From Flavobacterium sp. (lineage in GTDB: Bacteria; Bacteroidota; Bacteroidia; Flavobacteriales; Flavobacteriaceae): 64,000 nucleotides of DNA. This document shows positions 23,100 to 57,658 of the stretch, piece by piece. The number at the start of each line of letters is the position of its first letter. Position 1 is the first letter of the stretch. The notes under the pieces are model-generated. The model was not told the DNA's origin and made no database searches. It saw nothing but the letters and a program-made list of their open reading frames with translations. The stretch covers positions 42,363 to 106,362 of the forward strand of contig NZ_DATGWY010000019.1 of assembly GCF_035299245.1 (NCBI RefSeq). The letters are read 5' to 3'. Both the position numbers and the translations under genes were made by a program.

Positions 23100-24629
23100 A
23101 TGCAACACAACGTACTTATTTTAGATTTCGGCTCGCAATACACACAACTAATTGCACGCCGCGTTCGCGAATTGAATATATTCTGCGAAATTTTTCCTTA
23201 CAACCATGTTCCCGAAGATTTATCCTCGTACAAAGCAGTAATATTAGGCGGAAGTCCGTATTCGGTGCGCGCTGAAGATGCTTTGCAAATTGATTTGTCG
23301 GCCATCAGAGGTAAATTACCTTTGCTTGCTGTGTGTTACGGTGCACAATATTTGGCGCATTTTTCAGGTGGTGAAGTTGCGGCTTCCAACATCAGAGAAT
23401 ACGGAAGAGCCAACTTGTCGTACATCAAAGAAAATGAAGTGTTTTTTGAGAATGTCAATGTCAATTCACAAGTGTGGATGAGTCACAGCGACACGATTAA
23501 ACATCTTCCTACTAATGGTGTAAAATTGGCTTCGACGCACGATGTTGAAAACGCTGCTTACAAAATTGAAGGTGAAACCACCTATGCGATTCAGTTTCAT
23601 CCTGAAGTCTATCATTCAACCGATGGAAAGCAAATGTTAGAGAATTTCTTAGTCAAAATTGCCGAAGTGCCACAGAATTTCACTCCGAATGCTTTTGTGG
23701 AAGATTGTGTGAAAGAACTAAAAGAAAAAGTAAAAGACGATAAAGTAGTTTTAGGACTTTCGGGCGGAGTTGATTCGACTGTAGCTGCCGTTTTATTGCA
23801 TAAAGCGATTGGCAAGAACTTATACTGTATCTTTGTTAACAACGGTTTATTGCGCAAAAACGAGTTTGAAAATGTATTGCACCAATACAAAGATATGGGG
23901 TTGAATGTAAAAGGTGTAGATGCTTCGGCACGCTTTTTGGGTGAACTGGCTGGAGTTGATGATCCGGAAACGAAACGAAAAATCATCGGTCGCGTGTTCA
24001 TTGAGGTTTTTGACGACGAAGCACATCAATTGACGGATGTGAAATGGTTGGCGCAAGGAACGATTTATCCGGATGTGATAGAATCCATATCGGTTAAAGG
24101 TCCGAGTGCTACTATCAAATCACACCACAATGTAGGCGGTTTGCCTGATTTTATGAAATTGCAAATTGTAGAACCACTTCGAATGTTGTTTAAAGATGAA
24201 GTGCGAAGAGTAGGAGCGACTTTAGGTATTGATGCTGAATTATTAGGTCGTCATCCGTTTCCTGGCCCAGGTTTGTCGATTCGTATTTTGGGCGATATTA
24301 CTCCAGAGAAAGTTCGCATTTTACAAGAAGTGGATGCGATTTTTATCAACGGATTAAAAACGCACGGTTTGTACGACAAAGTATGGCAAGCGGGAGCGAT
24401 TTTGCTTCCTGTGAATAGTGTAGGAGTAATGGGCGATGAGCGTACTTACGAAAAAGTAGTTGCTTTAAGAGCTGTTGAATCTACCGATGGAATGACCGCA
24501 GATTGGGTACATCTACCGTATGAGTTTTTGATGAAAATATCGAACGAAATCATCAATAAAGTAAAAGGTGTCAATAGAGTAGTGTATGATATCAGTTCAA
24601 AACCACCGGCTACGATTGAGTGGGAATAA
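23100..24629 (+). CDS. guaA: GMP synthase (glutamine-hydrolysing)
   Basis: [48 protein letters not shown]. Confidence 0.98.
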
Positions 24630-24730
24630 ATTGTAATAATAAATCTACGTAAAGAACGTTTTTTAATTACTAATTTTATACTTTTAATCCTCTTTTCGAT
24701 TCGGTTAGGCACGGTGTTTTAATGTAATAA

Positions 24731-26716
24731 ATGGTAATTATGAAACGTTTTTTTAGTATTTTCTTTCTTGTTTTTCTGCAAAGTATTTTGGCGCAACAAA
24801 CCAATCATACGGTGCAAGAAGGCGAAACCATTTCTAAAATTGCTCAAAAATACAAGGTAACTCCATTTGATATTTATAAGTTGAATCCCGATGCACAAAC
24901 GGGTGTTAAGCCCGGAATGGTCTTGGCAATTCCAAAATCAGTAGCGCAAGATGGAACCATTGAAACCAAAGCAGTTGAAGTAAAACCAGTTGTAACTAAA
25001 CCAACAGAGACAAAGCCTGCAGCAGCAACATCTTCTCAAAAAACGCATACTGTAAAAGCAAAAGAAAGTGTTTACGGAATCTCAAAGCAATACGGTATCA
25101 CCATAGACGAGTTGGAAAAAAACAATCCCATTTTAAAAGAAACCGGATTGCAACCCGGACAAGTTTTGGTTATTAAAAAAGGCGCCAACGCAGTAAAACC
25201 AGCTCCAGTTGTAAAACCTGTAGCTTCAAATTCATCTGGAATTATTACACACCAAGTACAACCCAAAGAAACCAAATACGGAATTGCTACTAAATATGGA
25301 ATTACCGTAGAGGAATTGGAACGACAAAATCCTGATGTAGTTGATAATTTGCCCATCGGATTTGTTTTGAAAATCAATAAAAACGGAAAAGCAACAACGC
25401 CTTCCGAACCTGAAAAACCAAAAGAAGTCAAACAAGTAGCCGCTAAACCACTTTTTAATTATTCGGTTAAAGACGGCGATACTTTTTACAGTTTGACTAA
25501 ATCATTAGGTTTGACACAAGAAGAGTTGACGAAGCTTAATCCTGAATTGTCGGATGGTTTGAAGGAAGGAATGATGTTGAAAGTGCCTGTTGATTTATCT
25601 AATATGAGTTCGCCTTCAAAAGCTTCGACTAATTTGGTGAATTCCATTTCAAAAAAAGACAAAAAGCATTTAGTACTATTGATTCCGTTTAATGTTTCCA
25701 AAATTGAAATGGATACTGTCAAAACGCTAAACTCTAAATTCAAAGACGATAAATTTCTCAACATGACACTCGATTTTTATTCGGGAGTGATGATGGCAAT
25801 TGATTCGGCCAAAGTGTTAGGATTGAATGTTGATGTGAGTATTTTTGATTCGGAAGAAACCAAAACAACGACTTCTGCGTTATCAACATTGCAAAATAAA
25901 GCTTCAAATGCCGATGCCGTAATTGGTCCGTTTTTTCAAGCGAATGTCGAAAAAGTTGCCCAATCACTCGAAAGTAAAAAAGTACCTGTCATTTCGCCAT
26001 TGTCCAAAGAAGTAGCCACTTCGTATGCTAATTTATATAATTCAATGCCATCAGAATATGCTCAGAAAAAAGCAATTTTTGATTATATGAATGGCAAAAA
26101 CGGAAATGTTATTGCTTTAGTCGATGCCGATAAAACCAATAGTAAAGCATTTATTTCTGAATATGAGAAAAATGTAAAATGGGTTGGGCTATCCAGTAAA
26201 GGAACTTTTGTCAGCGATAGTATCAAAAAACATTTTGTAAAAGACAGATTGAATTTTGTAGTAATGGAATCCGAAAAATACGAGACGATTCAGACCACAT
26301 TAACGGCAATTAATTCGTCTCTTAAAGAGTATTCAGCACAATTAGTGGTGTTAGAAACCAATGAGATGCTCGATTTTGAAGAAATTTCTCTCAACAGTTT
26401 GGTGAAATCAAAGCTAACCTATCCTTCGTTGTACAGAGAAAATGAATCGAATGAAGCCATTCAGTTTGAAAAAGCTTATCGTATCAAAAATAAAGTGCTT
26501 CCGAATCAATTTGCTACTCGCGGATTTGATTTAACTTTCGATACGATGCTTCGTCTCTCACAAGACAAATCATTCGAAGAGACCGTTCTAAATGCGGCTT
26601 CGGAACAAGTAGAAAGTAAATTTGATTACATAAAAAATTCAAATGGTGGTTACCTTAACAAAGGAGTTTATGTTTTAACTTATCAATCTGATTTAACAAT
26701 TAAAGAAGCACAATAA
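24731..26716 (+). CDS. LysM x4 peptidoglycan-binding protein with C-terminal periplasmic-binding-protein-like domain
   Basis: Four LysM repeats (HTVQEGET, HTVKAKES, HQVQPKET, YSVKDGDT); LLIPF..DFYSG..DS, VIGPFF. Alternative ATG at 24740. Confidence 0.85.
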   Translation: MVIMKRFFSIFFLVFLQSILAQQTNHTVQEGETISKIAQKYKVTPFDIYKLNPDAQTGVKPGMVLAIPKSVAQDGTIETKAVEVKPVVTKPTETKPAAATSSQKTHTVKAKESVYGISKQYGITIDELEKNNPILKETGLQPGQVLVIKKGANAVKPAPVVKPVASNSSGIITHQVQPKETKYGIATKYGITVEELERQNPDVVDNLPIGFVLKINKNGKATTPSEPEKPKEVKQVAAKPLFNYSVKDGDTFYSLTKSLGLTQEELTKLNPELSDGLKEGMMLKVPVDLSNMSSPSKASTNLVNSISKKDKKHLVLLIPFNVSKIEMDTVKTLNSKFKDDKFLNMTLDFYSGVMMAIDSAKVLGLNVDVSIFDSEETKTTTSALSTLQNKASNADAVIGPFFQANVEKVAQSLESKKVPVISPLSKEVATSYANLYNSMPSEYAQKKAIFDYMNGKNGNVIALVDADKTNSKAFISEYEKNVKWVGLSSKGTFVSDSIKKHFVKDRLNFVVMESEKYETIQTTLTAINSSLKEYSAQLVVLETNEMLDFEEISLNSLVKSKLTYPSLYRENESNEAIQFEKAYRIKNKVLPNQFATRGFDLTFDTMLRLSQDKSFEETVLNAASEQVESKFDYIKNSNGGYLNKGVYVLTYQSDLTIKEAQ

Positions 26717-27120
26717 TGGCTACATCAAGTATAGAATATGTAGGTGATTTACGTACGATTTGTATTCACTTACAATCAGGAACTCAAATTCTAACCGACG
26801 CACCTACCGATAATCATGGGAAAGGTGAAGCGTTTTCTCCAACCGATTTGGTCGCCACCGCATTGGGAAGTTGTATGGTTTCAATCATGGCCATTAAATC
26901 CAAAGATTTAGACGTTGATCTCAAAGATTCTACTCTTTCAATTACCAAAATCATGCAAGCTGAACCACGCAAAATCGCTAAGATTATTGTTGAATTGAAT
27001 ATGTCAACTGAAACTTCAGATAAAAATAAAACCATTTTGGAACGAAGTGCGATGACGTGTCCGGTATTACTGAGTTTGCATCCCGATATCGAGAAAGAAG
27101 TCACTTTCAATTGGAAGTAA
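26716..27120 (+). CDS. OsmC family protein
   Basis: TDAP..HGKGEAFSPTDL..ALGSCM and second Cys CPV; TAATG overlap with the upstream gene. Confidence 0.9.
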   Translation: MATSSIEYVGDLRTICIHLQSGTQILTDAPTDNHGKGEAFSPTDLVATALGSCMVSIMAIKSKDLDVDLKDSTLSITKIMQAEPRKIAKIIVELNMSTETSDKNKTILERSAMTCPVLLSLHPDIEKEVTFNWK

Positions 27121-27122
27121 TT

Positions 27123-27165
27123 AAGACCGCTTCGCTGCAAGAGTCAAGACCGCTTCGCTGCAAGA
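27123..27165. repeat. Direct repeat AAGACCGCTTCGCTGCAAGA x2 (23-nt period)
   Basis: Identical 20-mers at 27123-27142 and 27146-27165. Confidence 0.85.
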
Positions 27166-27236
27166 AGCAAGACAGCTTTGTTATAAGACATGTTGAAGTC
27201 TTTTCTCTTTCATCTTTCTTCTTTTCTCTAAAAAAA

Positions 27237-27470
27237 ATGAACGACCAACAACAACTTCTCATCAAATTAGCTCATACCAAAATGCCTTTCGGAAAATACG
27301 AAGGGCGTTTTCTTATTGATTTACCCGAATATTATTTGGTGTGGCTCAAAAACAATCATCTTCCCAAAGGTCAATTAGGAGAACAACTTCAATTGGTTTA
27401 CGAACTCAAACTAAACGGTTTGGAAGAGCTGGTTCGGAATATTAAAAAGCAATACCCAAAACCGATTTGA
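27237..27470 (+). CDS. DUF3820 family small protein
   Basis: KMPFGKYEGR.LIDLPE.YL.W motif; ATG at 27237. Confidence 0.85.
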   Translation: MNDQQQLLIKLAHTKMPFGKYEGRFLIDLPEYYLVWLKNNHLPKGQLGEQLQLVYELKLNGLEELVRNIKKQYPKPI

Positions 27471-27480
27471 AAATGTAGTA

Positions 27481-29241
<1,761 letters not shown>

Positions 29242-29313
29242 CAGGTTTTTTCCTGTTAGGTATTTAATTGAAAAAGAGAGGAGCGAATCAGTTGGCTTCA
29301 TTGTATTCCTTGT

Positions 29314-29356
29314 TCCTGCTTTCCGCTTTGCATGGCATCGCGTCAATCAGGGCTAG
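29314..29356 (+). repeat. Dispersed structured element, copy C (short form)
   Basis: TCCTGCTTTCC...CAATCAGGGCTAG. Confidence 0.75.
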
Positions 29357-29478
29357 AAGGCCAACTTTTGGGCTTCTAAAATAATAGTTCTAACCCAACT
29401 ATTCTAAAATTGAAACAAAACCGTCGCAACAGCGACATACATACAAATTGATAAAATCCCTTTTTTGGGAAGTATACT

Positions 29479-31377
29479 ATGGAACAAAAAAAATTTGACC
29501 TAAATTCAATCATCGGGTTTGCCTTGATTTTTGGTATTGTAATGTGGATGATGTACAGCAACCAAAAAACAGCCGAAAAAGAACAACTCGAAAAAGCAAA
29601 ACAAGAAAAACTTCAAAAGCAACAAAAAGCCAAAACAGTTGCTGCCAAAGAAATCGTTACTATTGCTACCGATACTTCAGTATCAGACACTGCAAAAATC
29701 AAAAAACTACAAGCTACTTTAGGAACATTTGCTTATTCAGCAACTTTACCAACGGCAAAAGAGGGTGTAACTGTACTTGAAAATGATTTAGTAAAAATTT
29801 CGGTTTCTAACAAAGGTGGAGCTATTTCAGAAGTTACACTTAAAAAATACGACAAATTCAAAAAGAATTCGGGCGAATTGGTTTCGTTAATCAAAAACAA
29901 CAACGCCAATTTTAATCTTGAATTGCAAACTTCGGATAACCGAATCTTAAACACTAAAGACTTGTTTTTTGAACCCACTTTAACCAAAGTAGGAGCAGAT
30001 CAAATTCTTTCGATGAAATTAAAATCGGGTGCTAATGAGTTCTTAGAATACAAATACGTTCTAAAACAGGATAATTATATGCTTGATTTTGATGTGCGTT
30101 CACAAGGTTTAAGTAAAGCCGTGAATACTTCAAAACCAGCTAATTTGAACTGGGATTTGAAAACCTACCGCAACGAAAAAAGTATTTCCTACGAAAATCG
30201 TTATACCGAATCAGTTTTTGAATACGAAGATGGTAAAGACGATTACACAGGTCAAGGAACTGAGAAAGAAGAAAACCCAGAAAAGGTGACTTATGTTGCC
30301 TACAAACAACACTTGTTTACTACGGTTTTATTGACTAAAACTCCATTAGAAAAGGCATCCATCAAGTCATTTGATTTAGTAAAAGACGCCAAAAAAGATA
30401 CTATTTATACCAAACAATTCAAAACGGTTGCGCCTTTAACGTTTAACAACGGCGAATTGAACTATCAAATGAATTGGTATTTTGGGCCAGCCGATTATAA
30501 ATTATTAAGCAAATACGATCGCAATCTTGATGAAATTGTTTCGTTGGGATGGGGAATTTTTGGTTGGATCAACAAATTAATTTTCGTTCCGTTATTCGGA
30601 TTCTTAAGTTCGTTCATGGGATTAGGAATTGCAATTATTCTTTTCACTATTATTATCAAATTAGCAATGTCGCCTATTACTTTCAAATCGTTTTTATCTC
30701 AAGCGAAAATGAAAGTATTACGACCTGAAATTGCAGAATTAGGAGAGAAATTCGCAAAAGACCCAATGAAGAAACAACAAGAAACCATGAAGTTGTACAG
30801 TAAAGCTGGAGTAAATCCAATGGCTGGTTGTATTCCGGCATTGATTCAAATTCCGTTCATGTATGCTTCGTTTTTGTTCTTCCCAACTTCGGTTGATTTA
30901 AGACAAAAAGGTTTCCTTTGGGCTGACGATTTATCCTCATTTGATTCGGTATTGAAATTGCCATTTAACATTCCGCTTTATGGTGACCACATCAGTTTAT
31001 TTGCTTTGTTAGCATCAATCGCCATTTTCTTCTATATGAAAATGACTTCTGGAGATCAAGCTATGGCACAACCACCACAAGAAGGCATGCCTGATATGGC
31101 TAAAATCATGAAGATAATGATTTATTTGTCGCCAATCATGATGTTAATCTTCTTTAATAATTATGGTTCAGGTTTGAGTTTATACAACTTAATTTCCAAC
31201 TTAATCACTATTGGAATCATGATTGTTATTAAGAAGTATTTTATTGATAGTGAAAAAATACACGCTCAAATTCAAGAGAACAAAGCCAAACCCAAAACTG
31301 AAAGCAAGTTCCAAAAGAAAATGAGAGAGATGATGGAGCAAGCCGAAGCTCAAAAAGCACAACAGAAGAAAAAATAA
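29479..31377 (+). CDS. yidC: Membrane protein insertase YidC
   Basis: YFGP, LGWGIFGW, KMKVLRPEI, GVNPMAGCIP, FLWADDLS, GLSLY. Confidence 0.96.
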   Translation: MEQKKFDLNSIIGFALIFGIVMWMMYSNQKTAEKEQLEKAKQEKLQKQQKAKTVAAKEIVTIATDTSVSDTAKIKKLQATLGTFAYSATLPTAKEGVTVLENDLVKISVSNKGGAISEVTLKKYDKFKKNSGELVSLIKNNNANFNLELQTSDNRILNTKDLFFEPTLTKVGADQILSMKLKSGANEFLEYKYVLKQDNYMLDFDVRSQGLSKAVNTSKPANLNWDLKTYRNEKSISYENRYTESVFEYEDGKDDYTGQGTEKEENPEKVTYVAYKQHLFTTVLLTKTPLEKASIKSFDLVKDAKKDTIYTKQFKTVAPLTFNNGELNYQMNWYFGPADYKLLSKYDRNLDEIVSLGWGIFGWINKLIFVPLFGFLSSFMGLGIAIILFTIIIKLAMSPITFKSFLSQAKMKVLRPEIAELGEKFAKDPMKKQQETMKLYSKAGVNPMAGCIPALIQIPFMYASFLFFPTSVDLRQKGFLWADDLSSFDSVLKLPFNIPLYGDHISLFALLASIAIFFYMKMTSGDQAMAQPPQEGMPDMAKIMKIMIYLSPIMMLIFFNNYGSGLSLYNLISNLITIGIMIVIKKYFIDSEKIHAQIQENKAKPKTESKFQKKMREMMEQAEAQKAQQKKK

Positions 31378-47378: not shown

Positions 47379-48197
47379 TTAGAAAAGCCAAAGATACGCC
47401 TTTTTAAATCCTTCACGCCATAATTTTTCGTTGTGTTGTCCGCCTTTTACTATGACTTTTTTATTTTTATTTTGACATTCACAACGTTTCGAATTGACTT
47501 CGTATTCCATGGCATTTAAATCGCGCACCATATCATCATCACCTTCGCTATCGCCACACAGAAAATATACTTTGGTTTTAAAAGATTTGGTATTCTTCAT
47601 CAGGTCGAAAATTTCTTTCCGGTTGAACCAAAATGAAGGTGAGAAACAACCTACTTTTCCGAACACTTTTGGATATTTTAATGCTCCATAAAAAGAGACT
47701 AAACCTCCAAGCGAACTTCCCCAAAGACAAGTGTTGTTGGCGTTCGATTTGGTTCGGTAGTTTTGATCAACATAAGGTTTTAAAGTAGCAACTATAAAAT
47801 CCAAATAGTTGTCCGCATTTCCGCCATTGTACTTTTCGTGTTTAAAAGGCGTTAATTCGTCAATTCGCTTATCACCACCATGTTCAATTCCGATGACAAT
47901 TACTTGTGCTGCAATACTGTCTAGGGTTTCATCAACATTCCATTCACCTACATACGAAGTTTTCGCATCAAATAAATTCTGACCGTCGTGCATGTAAATC
48001 ACAGGGTATTTTTTGTTCGATTCGGAATAATTTTTAGGCAAATACACCCAGATTTTTTTCGATGAATTCAATTGAGGAGATTCAATAGTAAATGATGAAA
48101 CTTGCTGGCTTGCACTACTGTTCTGAGCATTTGTGAAGCAGAATCCAAAATTAATTAAAAAGAGTAAAGCGAATTTTGAGTGTATTAATTTCCACAT
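47379..48197 (-). CDS. Putative esterase (alpha/beta hydrolase)
   Basis: YPVIYMHDGQNLFD, GSSLGG, GGQHNE. Confidence 0.9.
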   Translation of the reverse strand: MWKLIHSKFALLFLINFGFCFTNAQNSSASQQVSSFTIESPQLNSSKKIWVYLPKNYSESNKKYPVIYMHDGQNLFDAKTSYVGEWNVDETLDSIAAQVIVIGIEHGGDKRIDELTPFKHEKYNGGNADNYLDFIVATLKPYVDQNYRTKSNANNTCLWGSSLGGLVSFYGALKYPKVFGKVGCFSPSFWFNRKEIFDLMKNTKSFKTKVYFLCGDSEGDDDMVRDLNAMEYEVNSKRCECQNKNKKVIVKGGQHNEKLWREGFKKAYLWLF

Positions 48198-49382: not shown

Positions 49383-49409
49383 TATTTTTGCACTACAACA
49401 CAACAAACT
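49383..49409 (+). promoter_or_regulatory. pyrD -7 element and short leader with CAACACAAC
   Basis: TATTTTTG at 49383-49390; CAACACAAC at 49396-49404. Confidence 0.7.
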
Positions 49410-50429
49410 ATGTACAAACTTCTCATTCGTCCGATTCTTTTTTGGTTTGATCCCGAAAAAGTTCATTATTTTACCTTTTCATTAATTCGAACACTTTGTA
49501 AAATTCCGGGTTTTCCCTCACTTTTTAAATCGTTGTATTTGGTCAATGATCAACGTTTGGAGCGTGAAGTTTTTGGATTGAAATTCAAAAACCCAGTTGG
49601 CCTTGCTGCCGGATTTGACAAAGACGCCAAATTGTACAATGAGCTGTCTGACTTCGGATTTGGTTTTATTGAAATCGGAACATTAACTCCAGTTGGCCAA
49701 GAAGGAAATCCAAAAAAGCGATTGTTTCGTTTGAAAGAAGATTCGGCCATCATCAACCGAATGGGTTTCAATAACGGCGGCGTAAAAGAAGCGGTCGAGC
49801 GTCTCAAAAAGAACAAAGGTGTTCTCATTGGCGGCAACATTGGTAAAAACAAAGTTACACCTAATGAAAATGCGGTAGACGACTACAAGATCTGTTTTGA
49901 AGCCTTATTCGATTATGTGGATTATTTTGTAGTGAATGTAAGTTCGCCCAATACTCCCAATTTACGTGAATTACAAGAAAAAGAACCGTTAAAACAACTG
50001 CTCAATCAACTTCAAACTGATAACTTACAACATACAACTCCAAAACCAATTCTACTCAAAATCGCACCCGATTTAACGGATTCACAGTTACTCGACATCA
50101 TCGAAATTGTCAATGAAACCAAAATCGCGGGAGTAATAGCAACGAATACGACTTTATCACGCGAAGGTTTGCAATCCGAAAATAAGTCGGAAACTGGCGG
50201 ATTATCCGGAAAACCTTTAACTAAACGTTCGACCGAAGTCATTCGTTTTCTGTCTGAAAAAAGCAATAAATCATTTCCAATTATTGGTGTAGGCGGAATC
50301 CACACTGCTGCTGATGCTATCGAAAAACTCGAAGCCGGTGCAAGCTTGATACAATTGTACACCGGATTTATCTATGAAGGTCCAAAATTGGTGCGCGATA
50401 TCAATACCGCAATTTTGAAAAAATCTTAG
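49410..50429 (+). CDS. pyrD: Quinone-dependent dihydroorotate dehydrogenase
   Basis: [41 protein letters not shown] at 49410. Confidence 0.96.
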
Positions 50430-50445: not shown

Positions 50446-50480
50446 CTCAGTTACTCAGCCACTCAGGAACTCAGTCACTC
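50446..50480. repeat. 8-nt-period repeat (ACTCAGnn)
   Basis: Four to five units directly before the HMG-CoA lyase ATG; a reverse-complement array is at 63541-63570. Confidence 0.7.
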
Positions 50481-50481
50481 C

Positions 50482-51345
50482 ATGGAAAATATCAAAATCA
50501 TCGAATGTCCGCGCGATGCCATGCAAGGCATCAAACCGTTTATTCCCACCGAGCGTAAAGTCGACTATATTCAGGCGTTGCTCCGCGTAGGTTTTGATAC
50601 GATTGATTTTGGAAGTTTTGTTTCGCCCAAAGCGATTCCGCAAATGCAAGATACCGCTGAGGTATTAGCGCAACTCGATTTGTCGCAAACAACTAGTAAA
50701 TTACTTGCCATTATTGCCAATACGCAAGGCGCTGAAATGGCTTCGGTTCACAAGGAAATCAACTATTTGGGTTTTCCGTTTTCGATTTCGGAGAATTTCC
50801 AAATGCGTAATACGCACAAAACCATAGCCGAGAGTTTGGTGACGCTACAAGAAATTTTAAACATTGCAGATAAATCCAATAAAGAGGTTGTAACTTACAT
50901 TTCAATGGGTTTCGGAAATCCGTACGGCGATCCGTGGAATGTAGAAATAGTAGGCGAGTGGACTGAAAAATTGGCGCAAATGGGTGTGAAAATTCTCTCG
51001 CTTTCCGACACTGTTGGAAGCTCAACACCTGAAGTGATTGACTATTTGTTTTCCAATTTGATTCCGAAATACCCAAACATTGAATTTGGCGCGCATTTGC
51101 ACACTACACCCGAAAAATGGTTTGAAAAAATCGATGCCGCCTACAAAGCCGGTTGCCGACGCTACGATGGCGCGATTCAAGGTTTTGGTGGTTGCCCTAT
51201 GGCCAAAGACGATTTGACAGGCAACATGCCCACCGAAAAATTACTTTCCTATTTCACTACTGTGAAAGAAAATACGAATACAAGTCCGATGAGCTTTGAA
51301 AGCGCATACAATGTGGCTTCGCGGTTGTTTGGCGAGTTTCATTAA
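50482..51345 (+). CDS. Hydroxymethylglutaryl-CoA lyase
   Basis: ECPRDAMQG, SFVSPKAIPQM, LSDTVG, HLH, GGCP, GNMPTE. Confidence 0.92.
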   Translation: MENIKIIECPRDAMQGIKPFIPTERKVDYIQALLRVGFDTIDFGSFVSPKAIPQMQDTAEVLAQLDLSQTTSKLLAIIANTQGAEMASVHKEINYLGFPFSISENFQMRNTHKTIAESLVTLQEILNIADKSNKEVVTYISMGFGNPYGDPWNVEIVGEWTEKLAQMGVKILSLSDTVGSSTPEVIDYLFSNLIPKYPNIEFGAHLHTTPEKWFEKIDAAYKAGCRRYDGAIQGFGGCPMAKDDLTGNMPTEKLLSYFTTVKENTNTSPMSFESAYNVASRLFGEFH

Positions 51346-51380
51346 TTTTTTACCATAAAAACTTTCAATTTTTTCTTTAT

Positions 51381-51440
51381 CATATAAGACATATAAGTTC
51401 ATGTATGTTTTCTCTTCAATGACCTTATATGCCTTATATG
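51381..51440. repeat. 9-nt-period inverted repeat (CATATAAG / CTTATATG)
   Basis: Arms at 51381-51397 and 51424-51440. Confidence 0.75.
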
Positions 51441-51461
51441 GTTCAAATTTTTAGTAGCTAA

Positions 51462-51596
51462 TCCAGCTTTTCATTCCAAGTTTTTTACTTCAAACTATTT
51501 TTGTAAGCTGCGAAAAGAGCTTCCGTTGGTCGCTTTTTCACAGCAACAAAAATTGGTTTTCACTTTCAAAAAGCTTTCCATTGCAATCTGGGCTAA
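51462..51596 (+). repeat. Dispersed structured element, copy H (long form)
   Basis: TCCAGCTTT...GCAATCTGGGCTAA; internal loop shares CGTTGGTCGC with copy B. Confidence 0.75.
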
Positions 51597-51612
51597 TTCA
51601 GAAAGCGGTCGG

Positions 51613-51743
51613 CAGAACGCAGAAGGCAGAAAGTGCAACTGAAATACAAAACGTCTAAACTAGCCCCGATTGAAGCGGCACGCAGTAAAGCGGAAAGCGG
51701 GACAAGGCGTTATTAGAACTTTTATACGTCTGCTTCAAATAAA
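51613..51743 (-). repeat. Direct repeat 1 flanking the P-type ATPase (contains element copy E, 51660-51702)
   Basis: Aligns with 54342-54480. Confidence 0.85.
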
Positions 51744-51752
51744 GAAATCTGA

Positions 51753-54254
51753 TTAAATCAGCTTTCTTCTTCTGAATACTTTATAAATCTCAATCCACAT
51801 TACTGATACAAACCCAACCAAAACACTCAATCCGACTTGCGTCCATGTAACCGAATCAAACAAAAAGAAAGTGCTGAAAACGGGTATAAAAAGCAATAAG
51901 GAAGTCATCAAAATGGTAATTCCAATGATGAGTGGAACTAGGTTGTTTTTGTACTGAATAGTAGTGAAAATAGAGTAATAAAACGAGCGATTGGCCAGTG
52001 TCAAAAAGATGTTGGATGCAATGAGTGCGATAAAGATTACGGTACGAGTGACGTTTTCCGAACAACCATCAGCCACACAATATTGATACACAAACAGTAA
52101 TCCTGCGGTAATTACTAAGCCTTGAATAATACTAATGGAAATTTCTTTTAAATTGAAAAAAGTAGTAGTCAGCGGTCGTGGTTGTTGCAGCATTAAATTG
52201 CGTTCCATGGGTTCGTTTTCGTAAATAATAGAGCAAGTCGGACCCATAATTATCTCAAAAAATATAATGTGAACGGGTGTAAAAATATTGGGATACATCC
52301 AACCCAAAGCCAACGGAATGAATACAATTAATATGATTGGAATGTGAATGGAAATGATGTACTGAATGGCTTTTTTTAAGTTGATGTAAATTTTTCTTCC
52401 CATGGCAATAGCGTCGGTCATTTTGGAAAAATCATCATCAATTAGGATTAAATTGGCGGCTTGTTTAGCGATTTCAGTTCCTTTTTTGCCCATGGCAATT
52501 CCGATGTGCGCCGATTTTAAAGCTGGACCATCATTGACTCCATCGCCTGTCATGGCTACAATTTGGTTGTTGGCTTTTAACGCCTGAATGATTTTTAGTT
52601 TGGCTTCGGGAAACATTCGGGTAAAAATGGCCGTTTCCATTACTTTCACTTTTAGCGTTGCTTCGTCCATGGCCATTAATTCGTCGCCATTTAAGACTTT
52701 GTCTGCCTCTTTAAATCCGACTTGTTTGGCAATAGTTGAGGTGGTTGCTGCATTGTCGCCCGTTACAATTTTCAGTTGAATTCCGGCTTTGTAAAACGTT
52801 TCAAAAACGTCTTGAATGTTGGCTTTCGGCGGATCGTAAAACGCGACCAATCCTTTAAAATGAAACTTCAATTCTTGTTGGGTTTTGGGGTAATCGTTGC
52901 CTGAAAATTCGGTAACACCAACACCTAAAACGCGATAACCTTCGTTGGCGATGGTTTCCATTGCGGTTACAATTTTCTTTTGATCGGCTTCCGATAAATG
53001 ACTTACTTCGATCAACGCTTCGGGTGCGCCTTTGGCAGCGATGATTCTTTTACCATTTTTATCTTCAAAAACGTGTGTCATCATCGGTGGTTTTCCGCTC
53101 AAAGGATATTCATGAATCAATTTAAAATTAGGTCGTTCATCAGTTGATTCTATATTGGTATACGCCTCATGAATGGCAATTTCCATGGCATCAAAAGGCG
53201 TAGGTTCGCTTGACCACATGGCCAAACTTAGTAGTTCTTCGGCTTCAGGGTTGAGTTTTTCGTTGGTATTGACAATGGCATCCGAAGTGAAAAGATACAA
53301 CTGCGCCAAACTCATTTTATTTTCGGTGATGGTTCCGGTTTTGTCGGTGCAGATTACCGTTGCACTTCCCAAGGTTTCTACGGTTTTGGTTTGTTTGGTG
53401 ATGATTCCCATCTTCATCAAACGCCACGCACCCAACGCCATGAAGGAAGCAAATGCCACCGGAATTTCTTCGGGAATAACACTCATGGCAATGGTTAGTG
53501 CTTTGAGTAAACTGTCTAAAACACTTTTCGAATTATAGTAATTTACTGCCCAAACGATGCCAAAAATGAGGATTCCAATAATGGACATTTTCTTGACAAA
53601 GTTGGTAATCTGGATTTGCAAAGGCGTTTTTTCTTCGGCAATTTCATTTAAACTTTTGCCTATTTTTCCGAGTTGCGTTTGGTTTCCGATAGCAGTAACT
53701 TCGCAAATTGCCATTCCTGTTGCCACAGTTGTTCCTTGAAAAACGATTTTATTTTCGGAATCCTCATTTTTAAAAACGGAAAGTGATTCGCCCGTTAATA
53801 TCGCTTCGTTTACTGAAAAATCGTGCGATTGTAAGATTGTAGCATCGGCGGGAACAAAACTTCCTTCTTCGATTTGAATGCAATCACCCAACACAATTTC
53901 TTCGCTTTGAATTTCGATTAGTTCACCATTTCGAATGACTTTACTTTTGGGTTGCGACATTTTTTTGAGCGCATCAATGGCATTACGACTGCGTGATTCC
54001 TGAAAAAGAGAGATTGCCGCTACCAAAAAAATTGCAAAAGTCATAAAGATACCATCACCCAAATCGCCCGAAATATAATAAATACTCGCTGCTGCCACCA
54101 ATAATAAAAACATAGGTTCTTTAACCATTTCGAGTAAAGAATTCAAAAAGTGATTCTTTTTTTGATGTTCTAACGAATTAGAACCTCCCGTTTTTCGAGA
54201 TGAAAGCACCTCTTGATGGGAAAGTCCGGTAATTGATGGTTTAAATTCGCTCAT
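51753..54254 (-). CDS. Cation-translocating P-type ATPase (P2-like)
   Basis: LTGES, TM4 VIPEEIP, DKTGTIT, KGAPE, TGD, TGDGVNDGPAL. Confidence 0.93.
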   Translation of the reverse strand: MSEFKPSITGLSHQEVLSSRKTGGSNSLEHQKKNHFLNSLLEMVKEPMFLLLVAAASIYYISGDLGDGIFMTFAIFLVAAISLFQESRSRNAIDALKKMSQPKSKVIRNGELIEIQSEEIVLGDCIQIEEGSFVPADATILQSHDFSVNEAILTGESLSVFKNEDSENKIVFQGTTVATGMAICEVTAIGNQTQLGKIGKSLNEIAEEKTPLQIQITNFVKKMSIIGILIFGIVWAVNYYNSKSVLDSLLKALTIAMSVIPEEIPVAFASFMALGAWRLMKMGIITKQTKTVETLGSATVICTDKTGTITENKMSLAQLYLFTSDAIVNTNEKLNPEAEELLSLAMWSSEPTPFDAMEIAIHEAYTNIESTDERPNFKLIHEYPLSGKPPMMTHVFEDKNGKRIIAAKGAPEALIEVSHLSEADQKKIVTAMETIANEGYRVLGVGVTEFSGNDYPKTQQELKFHFKGLVAFYDPPKANIQDVFETFYKAGIQLKIVTGDNAATTSTIAKQVGFKEADKVLNGDELMAMDEATLKVKVMETAIFTRMFPEAKLKIIQALKANNQIVAMTGDGVNDGPALKSAHIGIAMGKKGTEIAKQAANLILIDDDFSKMTDAIAMGRKIYINLKKAIQYIISIHIPIILIVFIPLALGWMYPNIFTPVHIIFFEIIMGPTCSIIYENEPMERNLMLQQPRPLTTTFFNLKEISISIIQGLVITAGLLFVYQYCVADGCSENVTRTVIFIALIASNIFLTLANRSFYYSIFTTIQYKNNLVPLIIGITILMTSLLLFIPVFSTFFLFDSVTWTQVGLSVLVGFVSVMWIEIYKVFRRRKLI

Positions 54255-54341
54255 AATGAAATTGTTGTGGTACTCTAAGGTAGTGATTTTTATTGGATTT
54301 ATGGGGAAATGATTGGGTTATTTTTGATAGTGTTCAGTGTT

Positions 54342-54480
54342 CAGAACGCAGAACACAGAAGGCAGAAAGTACTACTGAAATACAAAACGTCTAAACTAGC
54401 CCCGATTGGAGGAAGCACCGCGTGCGACGGAAAGCGGGACGAGGCGTTATTAGAATTACTAAATTGCTGCTTCAAATAAA
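54342..54480 (-). repeat. Direct repeat 2 flanking the P-type ATPase (contains element copy F, 54396-54439)
   Basis: Aligns with 51613-51743. Confidence 0.85.
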
Positions 54481-54553
54481 AAAAAAACCGTTTAATCAGC
54501 GTTTTGTGCAAGCAAATCCGTTTAATCCGCGTTCCAAAATGAGCCAAGTGAAT

Positions 54554-54600
54554 GAGATGCTTCGTTTCCCGAGAAGTCGGGACAAGCTCTCAGCATGACA
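54554..54600. repeat. REP-like unit GAGATGCTTCG...CTCAGCATGACA with nested TCCCGA/TCGGGA palindrome
   Basis: Read directly; related to the GAGATTGCTTCG..CGCAA units. Confidence 0.55.
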
Positions 54601-54632
54601 AGTTAGACGTTTAAAAATCGATGTCTAAAAAA

Positions 54633-54663
54633 ACTAATCACTAATCACTATTCACTAATCACT
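54633..54663. repeat. 7-nt tandem repeat (ACTAATC)
   Basis: About 4.5 units immediately upstream of the guaB -7 element TACATTTG (54672-54679). Confidence 0.75.
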
Positions 54664-54712
54664 TTTTTCACTACATTTGCATGCAATTTAACTACAACAA
54701 CTAAATTGCAAC

Positions 54713-56185
54713 ATGAAGGCACACATTTCTAAAATCGTTGGAGAAGGTCTTACTTACGACGATGTTCTGCTCATCCCAAATTACTCCGAAGTTTTACCGC
54801 GCGAAGTCAGTATTCAATCCAAATTTACACGTAACATTATGTTGAATGTTCCTATCGTTTCCGCTGCAATGGATACGGTAACCGAAAGTTCAATGGCGAT
54901 TGCTATGGCGCAAGAAGGTGGAATAGGCGTACTGCACAAAAACATGACCATCGAGCAACAAGCAGCCAAAGTGCGGAAAGTAAAACGTGCGGAAAGCGGT
55001 ATGATCATCGATCCGGTGACGCTTCCGTTAACCGCCACGGTGGGCGATGCGAAACAAGCGATGAAAGAGTTCAGTATCGGTGGAATTCCGGTAGTGGACG
55101 AAAACGGAACGTTAAAAGGAATTGTGACCAATCGTGATTTGCGTTTTGAAAAAGTCAATTCGCGCTCGATATTGGAAGTGATGACGTCTCAAAATTTAGT
55201 TACCGCTGCCGAAGGAACTACACTACAAGAAGCCGAAGGCATTTTACAAGAAAACAAAATTGAAAAATTGCCTGTTGTAGACAACAATTACAAATTAGTT
55301 GGTTTGATTACCTTTAGAGATATTACCAAATTAGCACAAAAACCAATTGCGAATAAAGATCGTTACGGTCGTTTAAGAGTAGCTGCTGCTTTGGGTGTAA
55401 CTGCCGATGCTTTGGAAAGAGCCACAGCTTTGGTCAATGCTGGAGTAGACGCAGTCATTATTGATACGGCGCACGGACACACGCAAGGCGTGGTAAAAGT
55501 GTTGAAAGAAGTAAAAGCGAAATTTCCTGATTTGGATGTAGTTGTTGGAAATATCGCTACGCCTGAAGCCGCTTTGTATTTAGTAGAAAATGGAGCTGAT
55601 GCGGTGAAAGTCGGTATTGGACCTGGTTCGATTTGTACTACACGTGTTGTGGCTGGAGTTGGTTTTCCACAGTTTTCTGCCGTATTGGAAGTCGCTGCTG
55701 CATTGCGTGGAAGTGGCGTTCCGGTGATTGCTGATGGTGGAATTCGATATACAGGCGATATCCCGAAAGCGATTGCTGCGGGTGCCGATAGTGTAATGTT
55801 GGGTTCATTGTTAGCCGGAACTAAAGAATCGCCAGGTGAAACCATCATTTTTGAAGGAAGAAAATTCAAATCGTACCGCGGAATGGGTTCGGTAGAAGCG
55901 ATGCAAGAAGGTTCGAAAGACCGTTATTTCCAAGATGTAGAAGACGATATTAAAAAATTAGTTCCAGAAGGAATTGTAGGTCGTGTTCCGTACAAAGGTG
56001 AATTGAACGAAAGTATGCAGCAATTCATTGGCGGTTTACGTGCCGGAATGGGTTATTGTGGTGCGAAAGACATTCCGACACTACAAGAAACAGGAAAGTT
56101 TGTTAGAATTACTACCAGTGGAATAGGCGAGAGTCATCCGCATAATGTGACGATTACTAAGGAAGCACCGAATTATTCAAGATAG
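54713..56185 (+). CDS. guaB: IMP dehydrogenase
   Basis: [12 protein letters not shown] pair, [39 protein letters not shown]. Confidence 0.98.
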
Positions 56186-56188
56186 TTT

Positions 56189-56274
56189 AACCGCAAAGTT
56201 CGCAAGGTATTTACGCAAGGTTCGCAATGATTATATAGTGTTCTTCGTGTTTTTGCTTTGCGAACTTTGCGGTT
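56189..56274. repeat. 9-nt-period inverted repeat (AACCGCAAAGTTCGCAA / TTGCGAACTTTGCGGTT)
   Basis: Perfect 17-bp arms between convergent guaB and purB; probably also acts as the terminator. Confidence 0.8.
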
Positions 56275-56281
56275 GAAAATT

Positions 56282-57625
56282 TTATATTCCTAAATAATTA
56301 CTTGGCGATATAGCCAATAATTCACTTTTAATGGCCTCCGAAACGTCTAAAGTCCCGATGAATTCGTGAATCGATGCTTTAGTGATGGCTGTGTTGGTTC
56401 TGGTCAATCCTTTCAGCGCTTCATATGGATTTGGATAGCCTTCTCTACGAAGAATCGTTTGAATGGCTTCGGCTACGACTGCCCAATTTTTTTCTAAATC
56501 TTCGGAAAATTTATCTTCGTTTAAAAGAAGTTTGTTTAAGCCTTTTAACGTGGCTTCAAAAGCAATTAAGGTATGTCCGATGGGAACACCAATGTTGCGT
56601 AAAACTGTACTGTCCGTCAAATCGCGTTGCAAACGAGAAACCGGAAGTTTGGCTGAAAGATGTTCAAAAATCGCATTGGCAATTCCGAGATTTCCTTCGC
56701 TGTTTTCAAAATCAATTGGGTTGACTTTGTGAGGCATAGCCGATGAACCGATTTCGCCTGCTTTGATTTTTTGTTTGAAATAATCCATCGAAACGTACGT
56801 CCAGATGTCGCGATCCAAATCGATGATGATGGTGTTGATTCGTTTTAAAGCATCAAAAAAGGCCGCAAAATGATCGTAATGTTCGATTTGAGTAGTAGGG
56901 AATGAATGGTGTAAACCCAATACTTCCTCTACGAAATGCGTCCCAAATTTTTTCCAATCGATGTTAGGATAGGCCACATGATGTGCGTTGTAATTTCCCG
57001 TTGCTCCACCAAATTTAGCGGCAAACGGAATGTTGAACAACAAACGCATTTGCTCCTCTAAACGTTCTACAAACACCAAAATTTCTTTTCCTAATCGAGT
57101 AGGAGAAGCCGGTTGACCGTGTGTTCTTGCTAACATTGGAACGTCTTTCCATTCCATTGCTAATTCTTTTAATTTGGCAATTACAGCAATTAAGCTCGGT
57201 AAATATACTTTTTCAAAAGCTTCTTTAGTGGATAATGGAATGGCTGTGTTGTTGATGTCTTGCGAAGTCAATCCGAAGTGAATGAACTCTTTATAAGGTG
57301 ATAAATTGAGTGCTTCAAATTGGTCCTTGATGAAATATTCCACCGCTTTGACATCGTGGTTGGTTACTTTTTCGGTGTCTTTTATTTTTTGAGCATCTTC
57401 CGAAGAAAAATTAGTATAAATACTGCGTAACTCGTCAAAAAGAGTTACATCTACACCCGAAAGCTGAGGTACATTGGCTTCGCAAAGTGCAATGAAATAT
57501 TCGATTTCGACTAAAACTCGGTATTTGATGAGTGCTTCTTCTGAAAAGTAAGGCGATAAAGAAATCGTTTTGCTTCTGTATCTTCCGTCAATTGGAGAAA
57601 CTGCGTTTAATTCGGATAGTTGCAT
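56282..57625 (-). CDS. purB: Adenylosuccinate lyase
   Basis: SPIDGRY, TNHDVKAVEY, HFGLTSQD, RTHGQPASP, GSSAMPHKVNPIDFEN, LQRDLTDS. Confidence 0.97.
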   Translation of the reverse strand: MQLSELNAVSPIDGRYRSKTISLSPYFSEEALIKYRVLVEIEYFIALCEANVPQLSGVDVTLFDELRSIYTNFSSEDAQKIKDTEKVTNHDVKAVEYFIKDQFEALNLSPYKEFIHFGLTSQDINNTAIPLSTKEAFEKVYLPSLIAVIAKLKELAMEWKDVPMLARTHGQPASPTRLGKEILVFVERLEEQMRLLFNIPFAAKFGGATGNYNAHHVAYPNIDWKKFGTHFVEEVLGLHHSFPTTQIEHYDHFAAFFDALKRINTIIIDLDRDIWTYVSMDYFKQKIKAGEIGSSAMPHKVNPIDFENSEGNLGIANAIFEHLSAKLPVSRLQRDLTDSTVLRNIGVPIGHTLIAFEATLKGLNKLLLNEDKFSEDLEKNWAVVAEAIQTILRREGYPNPYEALKGLTRTNTAITKASIHEFIGTLDVSEAIKSELLAISPSNYLGI

Positions 57626-57658
57626 GAGTTGTGTTGTTGTTTTGAAGGTGCAAATTTA
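57626..57658 (-). promoter_or_regulatory. purB -7 element and leader with CAACACAAC
   Basis: TAAATTTG (57658-57651) and CAACACAAC (57636-57628) on the minus strand. Confidence 0.7.

Follow-up and report, generated by a model that had tools for sequence, protein, structure and literature searches.

A C/A-rich word at the start codons of Flavobacterium nucleotide genes is a predicted target site of a conserved, tRNA-Asp-linked small RNA

Introduction

The sRNA GcvB, whose gene is divergent from gcvA, depends on Hfq, a protein that is not known from the phylum of Flavobacterium. Its target consensus is reportedly CACAaCAY, as attributed to Sharma et al. in 2007 and 2011. E. coli 3′ETS-leuZ is a sponge for other sRNAs. 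GibS of Bacteroides thetaiotaomicron is said to be an Hfq-independent, structured and terminator-ended sRNA that acts on mRNAs by pairing. To our knowledge, Bacteroidetes have neither Hfq nor ProQ, and no PurR or PyrR regulons have been described in them. Translation initiation in these bacteria is not Shine-Dalgarno-based. GcvB acts as a repressor through its R1 seed (PMC9299463). How Flavobacteria and other Bacteroidetes coordinate nucleotide synthesis is the question addressed here, starting from a short word, CAACACAAC, that is found near the start codons of purine and pyrimidine genes in a window of Flavobacterium DNA (the whole stretch of 64,000 nt that was analysed).

Results

The word CAACACAAC adjoins the start codons of four nucleotide genes in the window

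The original prediction had placed CAACACAAC on the sense strand near the starts of guaA, pyrG, pyrD and purB, and all four sites were recovered at 23103-23111 (+), 27609-27617 (+), 49396-49404 (+) and 57628-57636 (-), respectively. A TAnnTTTG box was present upstream of each of them, with gaps of 6 nt for guaA, 25 nt for pyrG, 5 nt for pyrD and 14 nt for purB.

In guaA (GMP synthase, 23100-24629, +; NCBIfam NF000848, E 1.6e-230), the word directly follows the ATG of a leaderless mRNA and forms codons 2-4 (Gln-His-Asn). The -7 promoter box TACTTTTG (23089-23096, +) lies 3 nt upstream of the ATG, and this arrangement of box, 3 nt and ATG was kept in most of 29 congeners. The string ATG-CAACACAAC was kept in 27 of the 29, with the entire 5′ end of the coding sequence being conserved and the motif not singled out.

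The pyrG leader site AACAACACAAC (27607-27617, +) consists of the 9-mer plus two further bases complementary to the sRNA described below, and ends 10 nt before the ATG. Its -7 box is again TACTTTTG (27576-27583, +). The pyrG (CTP synthase) coding sequence is an ORF at 27628-29241 (+) with orthologues 80-95% identical in 28 of the 29 congeners, named from its N-terminus and from the pyrG annotation of the F. psychrophilum orthologue. The exact 9-mer was found in 9 of 28 congeneric pyrG leaders and the core ACACAAC in nearly all. A U-tract at the pyrG start is an element separate from the motif.

For pyrD (quinone-dependent dihydroorotate dehydrogenase, 49410-50429, +; NCBIfam NF003652, E 3e-155), the site ACAACACAAC (49395-49404, +) is at or adjoining the predicted mRNA 5′ end and 5 nt before the ATG, and the -7 box is TATTTTTG (49383-49390, +). 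Eight of 28 congeners had the exact 9-mer, and about 16 had CAACACAAY. The purB site, also AACAACACAAC (57628-57638, -), ends 2 nt before the ATG of the adenylosuccinate lyase gene (56282-57625, -; NCBIfam NF006764, E 8.6e-199), with TAAATTTG (57651-57658, -) as its -7 box. When the purB leaders of 29 genera were compared, three other genera had the exact 9-mer 2 nt before the ATG, and one more had it at a distance of 9 nt. The exact word was kept in only about 15-30% of the orthologous pyrD, pyrG and purB leaders.

The window was said to hold a single further exact copy at 34% G+C; three were found, at a G+C content of 37%, and all three are within coding sequence. The copy at 7107-7115 (+), 41 nt into a 219-aa ORF, and that at 47430-47438 (-), close to the 3′ end of a coding sequence of 272 aa, are probably chance occurrences, and the one at 17015-17023 (-), deep in the coding sequence of a 1335-aa repeat protein, may be due to chance or codon usage. 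The total of seven exact copies compares with a mean of 0.85 and a maximum of 4 in 100 dinucleotide-preserving shuffles, and in the whole genome 75 were counted where base composition predicts 24.6; over-representation of C/A-rich 9- to 12-mers was also seen inside coding sequence. Typical leaders of this genome are A/T-rich, not C/A-rich. Among the 126 permutations of the same composition, CAACACAAC ranked first in each of five orthologue sets, and it also ranked first among the leaders of this genome, indicating that generic C/A richness is not what was detected. The looser 7-mer AACACAA was dropped as unspecific (65 leaders, mostly of unrelated genes). The placement of CAACACAAC beside purine and pyrimidine start codons is genuine and is conserved.

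The word is transcribed and keeps to the start codon rather than to the promoter

The original prediction expected the motif to be transcribed, and its geometry agrees. Downstream of -7 boxes, CAACACAAC was found 8 times in sense and never in antisense orientation, and the 7-mer core 17 times and never. Confinement to the sense strand and to positions past a promoter points to an action at the RNA level. Across genes and genera, the distance from promoter to motif ranged from 2 to about 60 nt, and the motif was always within about 40 nt of the ATG. In pyrD, purM, purD and guaA, the motif starts 5-6 nt past the -7 box, i.e., at the transcription start. By the mapped transcription start sites (TSSs) of F. 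psychrophilum, the transcripts of guaA and pyrD both contain a related sequence: the guaA TSS is the A of the ATG, and the pyrD transcript begins with ACACAACACAA (PMC9723704 Table S2). For purB of that species, the printed window ends with a shifted-register word, AAACAAC (PMC9723704 Table S2). An NTP-sensing initial transcript, which had also been put forward, does not fit, because the motif is not at a fixed distance from the promoter; moreover, CAACACAAC has neither the fixed start-site position nor the homopolymer tract of such control.

The word marks nucleotide genes genome-wide and in other genera

Elsewhere in the genome, exact copies were found upstream of purF, purM and hpt, and one-mismatch or shifted-register copies upstream of purD, purL, purH, pyrH, prs and udk (gene identities for motif-bearing leaders were taken from NCBIfam). 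A start-region match of at least 9 nt was found for 31 genes, ten of which belong to nucleotide metabolism, with further ones when one mismatch was allowed. This enrichment has a hypergeometric P of about 2e-12 if 40 such genes are assumed among the 3009 ORFs, and supports the idea that the motif marks a nucleotide-metabolism regulon. The hpt motif is recent, being present in only 2 of 27 congeners.

In other genera, among the sites that were assigned to genes, the promoter-plus-motif pattern was found before pyrD, purH, pyrG, carA, purC, prs (two genera) and guaA (five genera), and also before rpe and long GAPDH (three genera). Matches conserved in four genera were rejected because they fall in the part of an MltG-like gene that codes for its C-terminus. 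An A at position -1, which would pair with U10 of the seed of the sRNA described below, was present in 28 of 49 matches; this is a mild signal, as leaders are A-rich and many pattern matches are noise.

A conserved structured RNA carries the complement of the word at its unpaired 5′ end

The exact complement of the motif, GTTGTGTTG, has a copy in the genome of the window (G000) that is intergenic and not antisense to a gene leader, at C4:479494. This copy heads a candidate sRNA gene of about 90 nt at C4:479494-479582 (+), outside the window. The gene was located by an anti-motif search, so the complementarity of motif and seed itself carries no independent weight. Its unpaired 5′ end, GUUGUGUUG(U)UU, is invariant and is followed by a first hairpin whose sequence varies, a second, conserved one (GGUUUA/UAGACC) and an intrinsic terminator. 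The fold headed by GTTGTGTTG gave z = -4.8.

Twenty-eight of 29 congeners have the locus, as a single copy with 73-93% identity. Within the genus, the seed GUUGUGUUG is unpaired in the fold and invariant in 26 distinct copies, and hairpin 1 varies by compensatory pairs. A covariance model detected the sRNA in 34 of 61 Flavobacteriaceae genera, and the exact seed was present in 28 of 30 family-level loci that had been found without forcing the seed. In 95 distinct sequences, 95.3% of cells could pair, compared with 79.4% when shuffled and at most 60% when the partners were slid, and the alignment held 376 double-change cells versus 105. Three helices were recognized, 15 of 24 pairs had changes on both sides, and the end is formed by a stem and a U-run. 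A pattern scan returned at least 120 stretches; among the 80 records listed, all but one came from Flavobacteriaceae or unclassified Bacteroidota, the sole exception being an oddly labelled MAG. Seed invariance in the pattern-scan loci holds by construction.

No conserved gene was found downstream of the sRNA, which argues against a cis leader. With its helices, its final stem and U-run and no conserved gene behind it, the candidate has the conserved structure and terminator of an independent non-coding unit. A screen requiring the anti-motif, a TAnnTTTG box and a perfect-stem terminator gave nothing useful; this sRNA has a degenerate box in this genus and an imperfect terminator stem.

An Rfam search at the locus gave no match even at E up to 1. 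In the part of the F. psychrophilum sRNA list (Rfp1-89, PMC9723704) that was consulted, neither this RNA nor its seed appears; there, only a 32-nt 3′ segment after its tRNA-Asp is entered, and the 9-mer occurs only within an unrelated antisense RNA. Literature searches with the motif and seed strings returned primers and unrelated RNAs only, and no description of such a Flavobacterium sRNA or nucleotide regulon was found. As far as these searches go, the RNA of about 90 nt is previously undescribed and absent from Rfam.

The sRNA gene is linked to tRNA-Asp

The sRNA gene usually lies just 3′ of tRNA-Asp(GTC), which it follows in 116 of 161 copies. A canonical TAnnTTTG box ending exactly 4 nt before the seed was present in at least six genera, and in 17 of the 161 copies. 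This spacing matches the sigma-A box at -12 to -5 (PMC9723704), from which the seed is predicted to be transcribed. The seed thus lies within the predicted transcribed part of the candidate sRNA gene. In other genera, the sRNA follows tRNA-Asp directly, or comes after a promoter and a 5′ hairpin. In some genera, the interval from tRNA-Asp to the seed contains neither a promoter nor a terminator; in others, it includes a terminator, or there is a canonical -7 box. In many genera, the sRNA starts 7-40 nt past the 3′ end of tRNA-Asp without a promoter and would be cut from the tRNA precursor. In the genus of this genome, the box before the seed is degenerate (TATCTAAG or CATTTAAA), so the 5′ end there would depend on terminator read-through or processing.

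Predicted pairing and co-occurrence of the sRNA with its proposed targets

Duplexes with the sRNA seed were predicted for 1192 leaders, which served as the background (mean -6.4, sd 2.7, 5th percentile -11.1 kcal/mol). The four sites of the window were close to the top: pyrG -15.5 kcal/mol (rank 6), purB -15.0 (rank 7), guaA -14.8 (rank 9), where codons 2-4 are the predicted pairing site, and pyrD -14.5 (rank 11). Together with purF, hpt, purM and purL, they are all within the best 17 of the 1192 leaders. Degenerate sites had also been assigned to the leaders of guaB (CTACAACAACT, 54692-54702, +) and carB (CTCACAACAAAC, 9983-9994, +). Their duplexes, at -8.8 and -9.4 kcal/mol, respectively, are within the background range, and neither is supported as a site since such energies cannot be told from those of background leaders.

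In genomes with a detected sRNA, the promoter-plus-motif pattern gave 43 matches versus 12 for the reversed control, and in genomes without one, 15 versus 13. The co-occurrence has a Fisher P of 0.025 (0.007 without guaA-type matches), in a test that counts related genomes as independent and in which one genome (G049) alone supplies 11 matches. Four genomes (G017, G055, G044 and G045) have motif-bearing guaA, purB, prs or GAPDH leaders and gave no sRNA match under strict filters.

Discussion

Functionally related mRNAs were found to carry complementary sites in their initiation regions, conserved in relatives. We regard CAACACAAC as probably the mRNA target site of a conserved trans-acting sRNA, and the genes that carry it as a predicted GcvB-like regulon for nucleotide and PRPP metabolism. 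In full, the target site would comprise 9 nt or more of AAACAACACAAC. The 5′ seed is proposed to pair with this C/A-rich word in the translation-initiation regions of mRNAs of several pathways: de novo purine synthesis (purF, purD, purL, purM, purB, purH and guaA), pyrimidine synthesis (pyrD, pyrG and pyrH), salvage (hpt and udk) and PRPP supply (prs, possibly rpe). The expected effect of such pairing is a change in how ribosomes reach the mRNA or in how stable the mRNA is. Repression would be the default expectation, as the G/U-rich seed of the analogous GcvB masks enhancer elements rich in C and A.

A rather unlikely alternative is a constitutive role of the word in translation, as a C/A-rich enhancer or as an unstructured landing pad for ribosomes on SD-less mRNAs, with no dedicated trans regulator and with the sRNA complement being coincidental or serving other targets. 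Bacteroidetes initiate without SD pairing and favour A-rich unstructured leaders, CA repeats enhance translation in E. coli, and the motif adjoins start codons at variable spacing and is also found before central-metabolism genes (the E2 acyltransferase gene, fsa, ilvE and long GAPDH). However, the leaders here are typically A/T-rich rather than C/A-rich, the exact word outranks all 125 other permutations in every orthologue set, and the gene set is strongly biased to nucleotide metabolism. It is also unlikely that a word taken from about 0.3 Mb of intergenic DNA would by chance coincide with the unpaired and invariant end of a structured RNA present across the family. An enhancer function is compatible with the sRNA model, GcvB targets being enhancers themselves. 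Genes for rRNA, which were looked for with regard to 16S rRNA complementarity, were absent from the assembly.

The original prediction also named an RNA-binding repressor or activator as a possible factor. Its RNA-level part stands, as the signal is confined to the sense strand of the transcribed region; its protein part gives way to a conserved sRNA with an invariant 5′ end exactly complementary to the word. That the word is the site of a sequence-specific RNA-binding protein (RRM, KH or S1-type) controlling the translation of nucleotide genes, with the sRNA perhaps competing or assisting, appears quite unlikely. The same geometry would suit such a protein, and Bacteroidetes, being without Hfq and ProQ, use other RNA-binding proteins. 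On the other hand, the analysis pointed to no candidate protein, the loci have no regulator gene linked to them, and just one regulator, a LytTR DNA-binding response regulator, has the motif in the leader of its own gene. Such a protein would also leave unexplained the exact complement at the unpaired end of a conserved RNA.

A DNA or nascent-transcript signal at the promoter, acting as an operator that blocks RNA polymerase or as an initial-transcript ATP/CTP sensor, would draw on the C- and A-only composition of the word, its position at the transcription start of pyrD, purM, purD and guaA, and the NTP-sensitive start-site choice or reiterative transcription known for E. coli pyrC/pyrD and B. 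subtilis pyrG, but is very improbable, as the promoter distance varies while the motif stays near the ATG, and the word is not palindromic, has no homopolymer tract and was never found antisense upstream of or overlapping -33 or -7 boxes. The conserved sRNA is accordingly ranked as the likeliest candidate for the trans factor, more likely than a protein or NTP sensing.

In its widest form, the sRNA model makes the tRNA-Asp-linked RNA of Flavobacteriaceae a master post-transcriptional regulator of nucleotide and PRPP metabolism. A G/U-rich 5′ seed of 9-12 nt would act on C/A-rich initiation regions, leaderless mRNA included, as an Hfq-independent counterpart of GcvB; we lean, if only slightly, towards this reading. 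If true, this would be the first described signal coordinating purine and pyrimidine synthesis in a phylum without known PurR or PyrR. A leader word has been turned into a defined pair, namely an sRNA gene with a 9-nt invariant seed and a dozen or more complementary mRNAs. Confirmation would establish a global sRNA that is widely conserved in a family abundant in the environment and including fish pathogens. It would also offer a clean model of how sRNAs act on mRNAs that are SD-less or leaderless, and exemplify the biogenesis of sRNAs linked to tRNAs.

Comparison with known systems

PurR, PyrR and the purine, ZTP and PRPP riboswitches resemble the system predicted here in that pur and pyr genes are controlled together, by a cis signal that they share close to their 5′ ends. 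The word described here is short, unstructured, not palindromic and limited to the sense strand, and in contrast to those systems, a single signal is common to genes for purines, pyrimidines, salvage and PRPP. The window contained no riboswitch or PyrR-binding RNA family; there, an Rfam search at gathering thresholds gave only Flavo-1. The E. coli 3′ETS-leuZ is similar in being tRNA-linked, as is this sRNA, which in many genera has no promoter between it and tRNA-Asp. However, this sRNA has its own terminator, its own canonical promoter in several genera and predicted mRNA targets. Rfp18 of Flavobacterium psychrophilum resembles this RNA in its phylum and its structured, terminator-ended form, and in the Hfq-independent pairing with mRNAs (PMC9723704) that is predicted for the present RNA. 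The sequences of GibS and Rfp18 are unrelated to this RNA, their regulons concern glycan metabolism (GibS) and proteases (Rfp18), and this RNA occurs in at least 34 genera.

The nearest likeness is to GcvB of Enterobacteria (RF00022, R1 seed). Both have a single-stranded G/U-rich seed, C/A-rich targets in initiation regions (GUUGUGUUGUUU as the seed and AAACAACACAAC as the predicted target in the present case), many predicted or known mRNAs of one metabolic area and an intrinsic terminator at the RNA end. The two RNAs have no homology in sequence or structure, in keeping with the Rfam result at this locus. Moreover, the seed is at the extreme 5′ end in this sRNA and internal in GcvB, and the gene is linked to tRNA-Asp rather than to gcvA. 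Whereas GcvB governs amino-acid transport, the regulon predicted for the Flavobacterium RNA is nucleotide and PRPP metabolism.

The motif at start regions of nucleotide genes

The window (C19:42363-106362 of the 3.53 Mb assembly G000, 35.6% G+C) contains seven copies of CAACACAAC, vs a mean of 0.85 and a maximum of 4 in 100 dinucleotide-preserving shuffles. Four of them lie exactly where the original prediction had placed them, on the sense strand of the following gene. The guaA copy (23103-23111, +) directly follows the ATG as codons 2-4, 6 nt after the -7 box (TAnnTTTG) TACTTTTG. The pyrG copy (27609-27617, +) lies 25 nt after a box TACTTTTG and ends 10 nt before the ATG, the pyrD copy (49396-49404, +) lies 5 nt after TATTTTTG and ends 5 nt before the ATG, and the purB copy (57628-57636, -) lies 14 nt after TAAATTTG and ends 2 nt before the ATG. 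NCBIfam confirmed that guaA, pyrD and purB are correctly identified. Three further exact copies were found (7107, +; 17015, -; 47430, -), all inside coding sequence, where one of these had been seen earlier as the sole addition.

Genome-wide, 75 copies were counted vs 24.6 expected from base composition. Exact copies are present in the start regions of guaA, pyrG, pyrD, purB, purF, purM and hpt, and also before genes for a LytTR response regulator, an O/P-type porin, a phosphatase-like protein and ilvE. Copies with one mismatch precede purD, pyrH, purL and purH, and register-shifted forms of the longer word AAACAACACAAC lie before prs, udk, rpe, trpD, long GAPDH and aspartate transaminase. The proposed enrichment in nucleotide genes was borne out, the count for these genes being 10/31 with a start-region match of at least 9 nt (hypergeometric P ~2e-12). 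At the O/P-type (phosphate-selective) porin gene, the ATG is directly preceded by the entire 12-nt complement AAACAACACAAC (C2:134116-134127, +), and the regulon may include this porin as a member that is not an enzyme.

The motif acts as an RNA-level signal in the favoured reading

Greedy ORF calls gave 1192 promoter-anchored leaders, each from TAnnTTTG box to ATG. Up to 45 nt downstream of the -7 boxes, the motif occurred 8 times in sense and 0 times in antisense orientation, and its 7-mer core 17 and 0 times; upstream of the boxes of these leaders no strand bias was found. The distance from promoter to motif varied widely, and the motif remained close to the start codon. In the 5′-end mapping of F. 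psychrophilum (Table S2 of PMC9723704, sequence column -50 to +10), where the sigma-A box TAnnTTTG occupies positions -12 to -5, guaA is leaderless with its TSS at the A of the ATG, and the transcripts of pyrD, purB and pyrG start with ACACAACACAA, CTTTAAACAAC and GTTTTTTTACA, respectively. The sense-only bias, the variable promoter distance and these TSSs favour an RNA-level signal over a DNA operator or a fixed initial-transcript sensor. The NTP-sensing idea of the original prediction is thus disfavoured. In the window, guaA is likewise leaderless, with only 3 nt between its -7 box and the ATG (23089-23130).

Conservation was compared among 29 species of the genus and, for purB, 29 other genera. 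ATG-CAACACAAC of guaA was kept in 27/29 congeners; synonymous sites of codons 1-10 were almost invariant too, so that the guaA case by itself supports the motif only weakly, and nucleotide-level selection extends beyond the 9-mer. Exact copies were found in 8/28 pyrD leaders (CAACACAAY in about 16), 9/28 pyrG leaders (core ACACAAC in nearly all) and only 2/27 hpt leaders. For purB, 4/29 other genera had an exact copy, in three of them 2 nt before the ATG even with a recognisable promoter 30-60 nt away. In each of five orthologue sets, CAACACAAC ranked first of 126 same-composition permutations, and the runners-up overlap the extended complement.

A candidate small RNA carries the complement of the motif

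When intergenic reverse-complement copies of the motif were listed in the genome, one was not just the antisense of a gene leader (C4:479494, +). It opens a candidate sRNA gene of ~90 nt with the 5′ end GUUGUGUUG (C4:479494-479582, +; locus L147:1524-1612), located after a tRNA-Asp gene and that gene's terminator. The predicted fold (-33.2 kcal/mol, z = -4.8) leaves the first 20 nt single-stranded and comprises three hairpins, of which hairpin 3 forms a terminator together with its U-run. By BLAST, the 156-nt region was single copy in 28/29 congeners at 73-93% identity. Alignment of 26 distinct copies showed no change in GTTGTGTTG, in most of the U's after it, in hairpin 2 (GGUUUA/UAGACC) or in the linker CCAAUGAAAAGC; hairpin 1 varies in sequence via compensatory pairs. 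Across 95 distinct sequences, helix pairing held in 95.3% of cells vs 79.4% when shuffled and at most 60% with slid partners, with 376 double-change cells vs 105.

A covariance model with strict filters detected the sRNA in 34/61 genera, and 28/30 loci fetched after this search had the exact seed at the sRNA start. A scan of every species genome with a sequence pattern returned at least 120 stretches; 79 of the 80 matches listed belonged to Flavobacteriaceae or unclassified Bacteroidota, the exception being one oddly labelled MAG. No Rfam family matched here with E values of up to 1 admitted, and a literature search for the seed string gave no occurrence in such a context.

A canonical TAnnTTTG box has its end exactly 4 nt ahead of GTTGTGTTG in at least six genera, making the first G the predicted +1; this arrangement was also counted in 17/161 sRNA copies. 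In Lutibacter, Tenacibaculum and others, a small 5′ hairpin stands between a canonical promoter and the seed; in many other genera, the seed starts 7-40 nt past the 3′ end of tRNA-Asp(GTC), and a hairpin may or may not lie in between. This tRNA gene is within 130 nt of 116/161 copies. The seed is inside the predicted transcribed region in every arrangement. In the genus studied here the box before the seed is degenerate, and the sRNA 5′ end probably arises from read-through or processing. No conserved gene was found downstream of the 161 copies, and a cis-leader identity was therefore rejected.

The invariant part of the sRNA is the exact complement of the over-represented 9-mer. In 82/95 copies U occupies position 10, and most true sites have an A immediately ahead of the motif, a match that lends only mild support. 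When the first 14 nt of the sRNA were paired with the 1192 leaders by RNAduplex (mean -6.4, 5th percentile -11.1 kcal/mol), hpt ranked 1, pyrG 6, purB 7, guaA 9, purM 10, pyrD 11 and purL 17. The purF leader, scored separately for want of a recognised -7 box, reached -16.7 kcal/mol, better than all 1192. The degenerate guaB and carB sites originally proposed gave -8.8 and -9.4 kcal/mol, ordinary values among leaders. Also high in this ranking was a small paralogous gene family with leaders of the form GCAGCA(G/C)CAAC (C2 starts 162, 2144, 5573 and 9261, -; C16:260765).

Co-occurrence in other genera

The pattern TAnnTTTG-N(2-30)-CAACACAAC was searched in 61 genomes. Outside the window's own genome, it matched 58 times vs 25 for the reversed-pattern control: 43 vs 12 in the 33 genomes with a detected sRNA, and 15 vs 13 in the 27 where it was not detected. 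Fisher P was 0.025, and 0.007 after removal of guaA-type matches, on which coding constraint may act; the counts include related genomes that are not independent of one another, and 11 matches come from a single genome. With one locus fetched per genome, the genes below the promoter and motif were pyrD, purH, pyrG, carA, purC and rpe, together with prs (two genera), guaA (five genera) and long GAPDH (three genera). Several genomes scored negative for the sRNA had guaA, purB, prs or GAPDH leaders with the motif, and their sRNA may have been overlooked through strict filters. Four fetched loci (L222, L226, L228 and L235) were rejected as leader sites because the matched stretch codes for the C-terminus of an MltG/YceG-like protein (..HKFAKTLAQHNRN..), and pattern searches can pick up false positives at this gene.

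Neighbouring elements

The pyrG transcript start region CATCGTTTTTTACA (27584-27597) is conserved in most congeners, and the mapped F. psychrophilum TSS is the G preceding the U-tract; it is a candidate UTP/CTP-sensitive reiterative-transcription site, distinct from the C/A motif. Four matches to Flavo-1 RNA (RF01705) were located (9755-9849, -; 22892-23036, +; 51456-51598, -; 51658-51708, +), one of which immediately precedes the guaA promoter, and another of which lies on the opposite strand upstream of carB. At other places in the genome, the leaders of purF and trpD are preceded by this same hairpin end, GAATCTGTGGCAAAA. Short direct repeats in phase are present ahead of the pyrG (tcaaatcttcaaatcttcaaatcttcaaat, 27540-27570) and purB (cacaacttataactcacaacttacaactaataac, 57660-57700, -) promoters, and relatives have similar repeats before the orthologous promoters; UP-like elements or curved DNA are possible explanations.

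A base-pairing regulon and its alternatives

The best-supported reading, fairly probable on a basis that is comparative and computational throughout, is that motif and seed form a base-pairing sRNA regulon. Since the sRNA was found with the anti-motif as query, independent support comes only from conservation, structure, promoter placement and co-occurrence. In this reading, mRNAs of purine and pyrimidine synthesis, of salvage and of PRPP supply would be bound at their initiation regions, by pairing of (AAA)CAACACAAC with the 5′ seed GUUGUGUUG(UUU); by analogy with GcvB this pairing would hinder initiation. Where the motif is the mRNA 5′ end (pyrD, purM, purD, guaA), pairing might instead protect from 5′-end-dependent decay.

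Among rivals to the sRNA regulon, a constitutive C/A-rich enhancer is compatible with a role as sRNA target too; leaders of this genome are generally A/T-rich, not C/A-rich. The motif could also be the site of an RNA-binding protein, a reading that shares the RNA-level signal and does not explain the complementary seed. Promoter-level control, for which the adjacent -7 boxes might speak, fits poorly with a sense-only motif that stays near the start codon.

The G/U-rich R1 seed of GcvB reportedly masks C/A-rich enhancer elements, as Sharma et al. are said to have described in 2007 and 2011. Dependence of GcvB repression on R1 is documented (PMC9299463). The likeness of the candidate sRNA to GcvB lies in the proposed pairing of its seed with C/A-rich elements of initiation regions, as GcvB R1 does.
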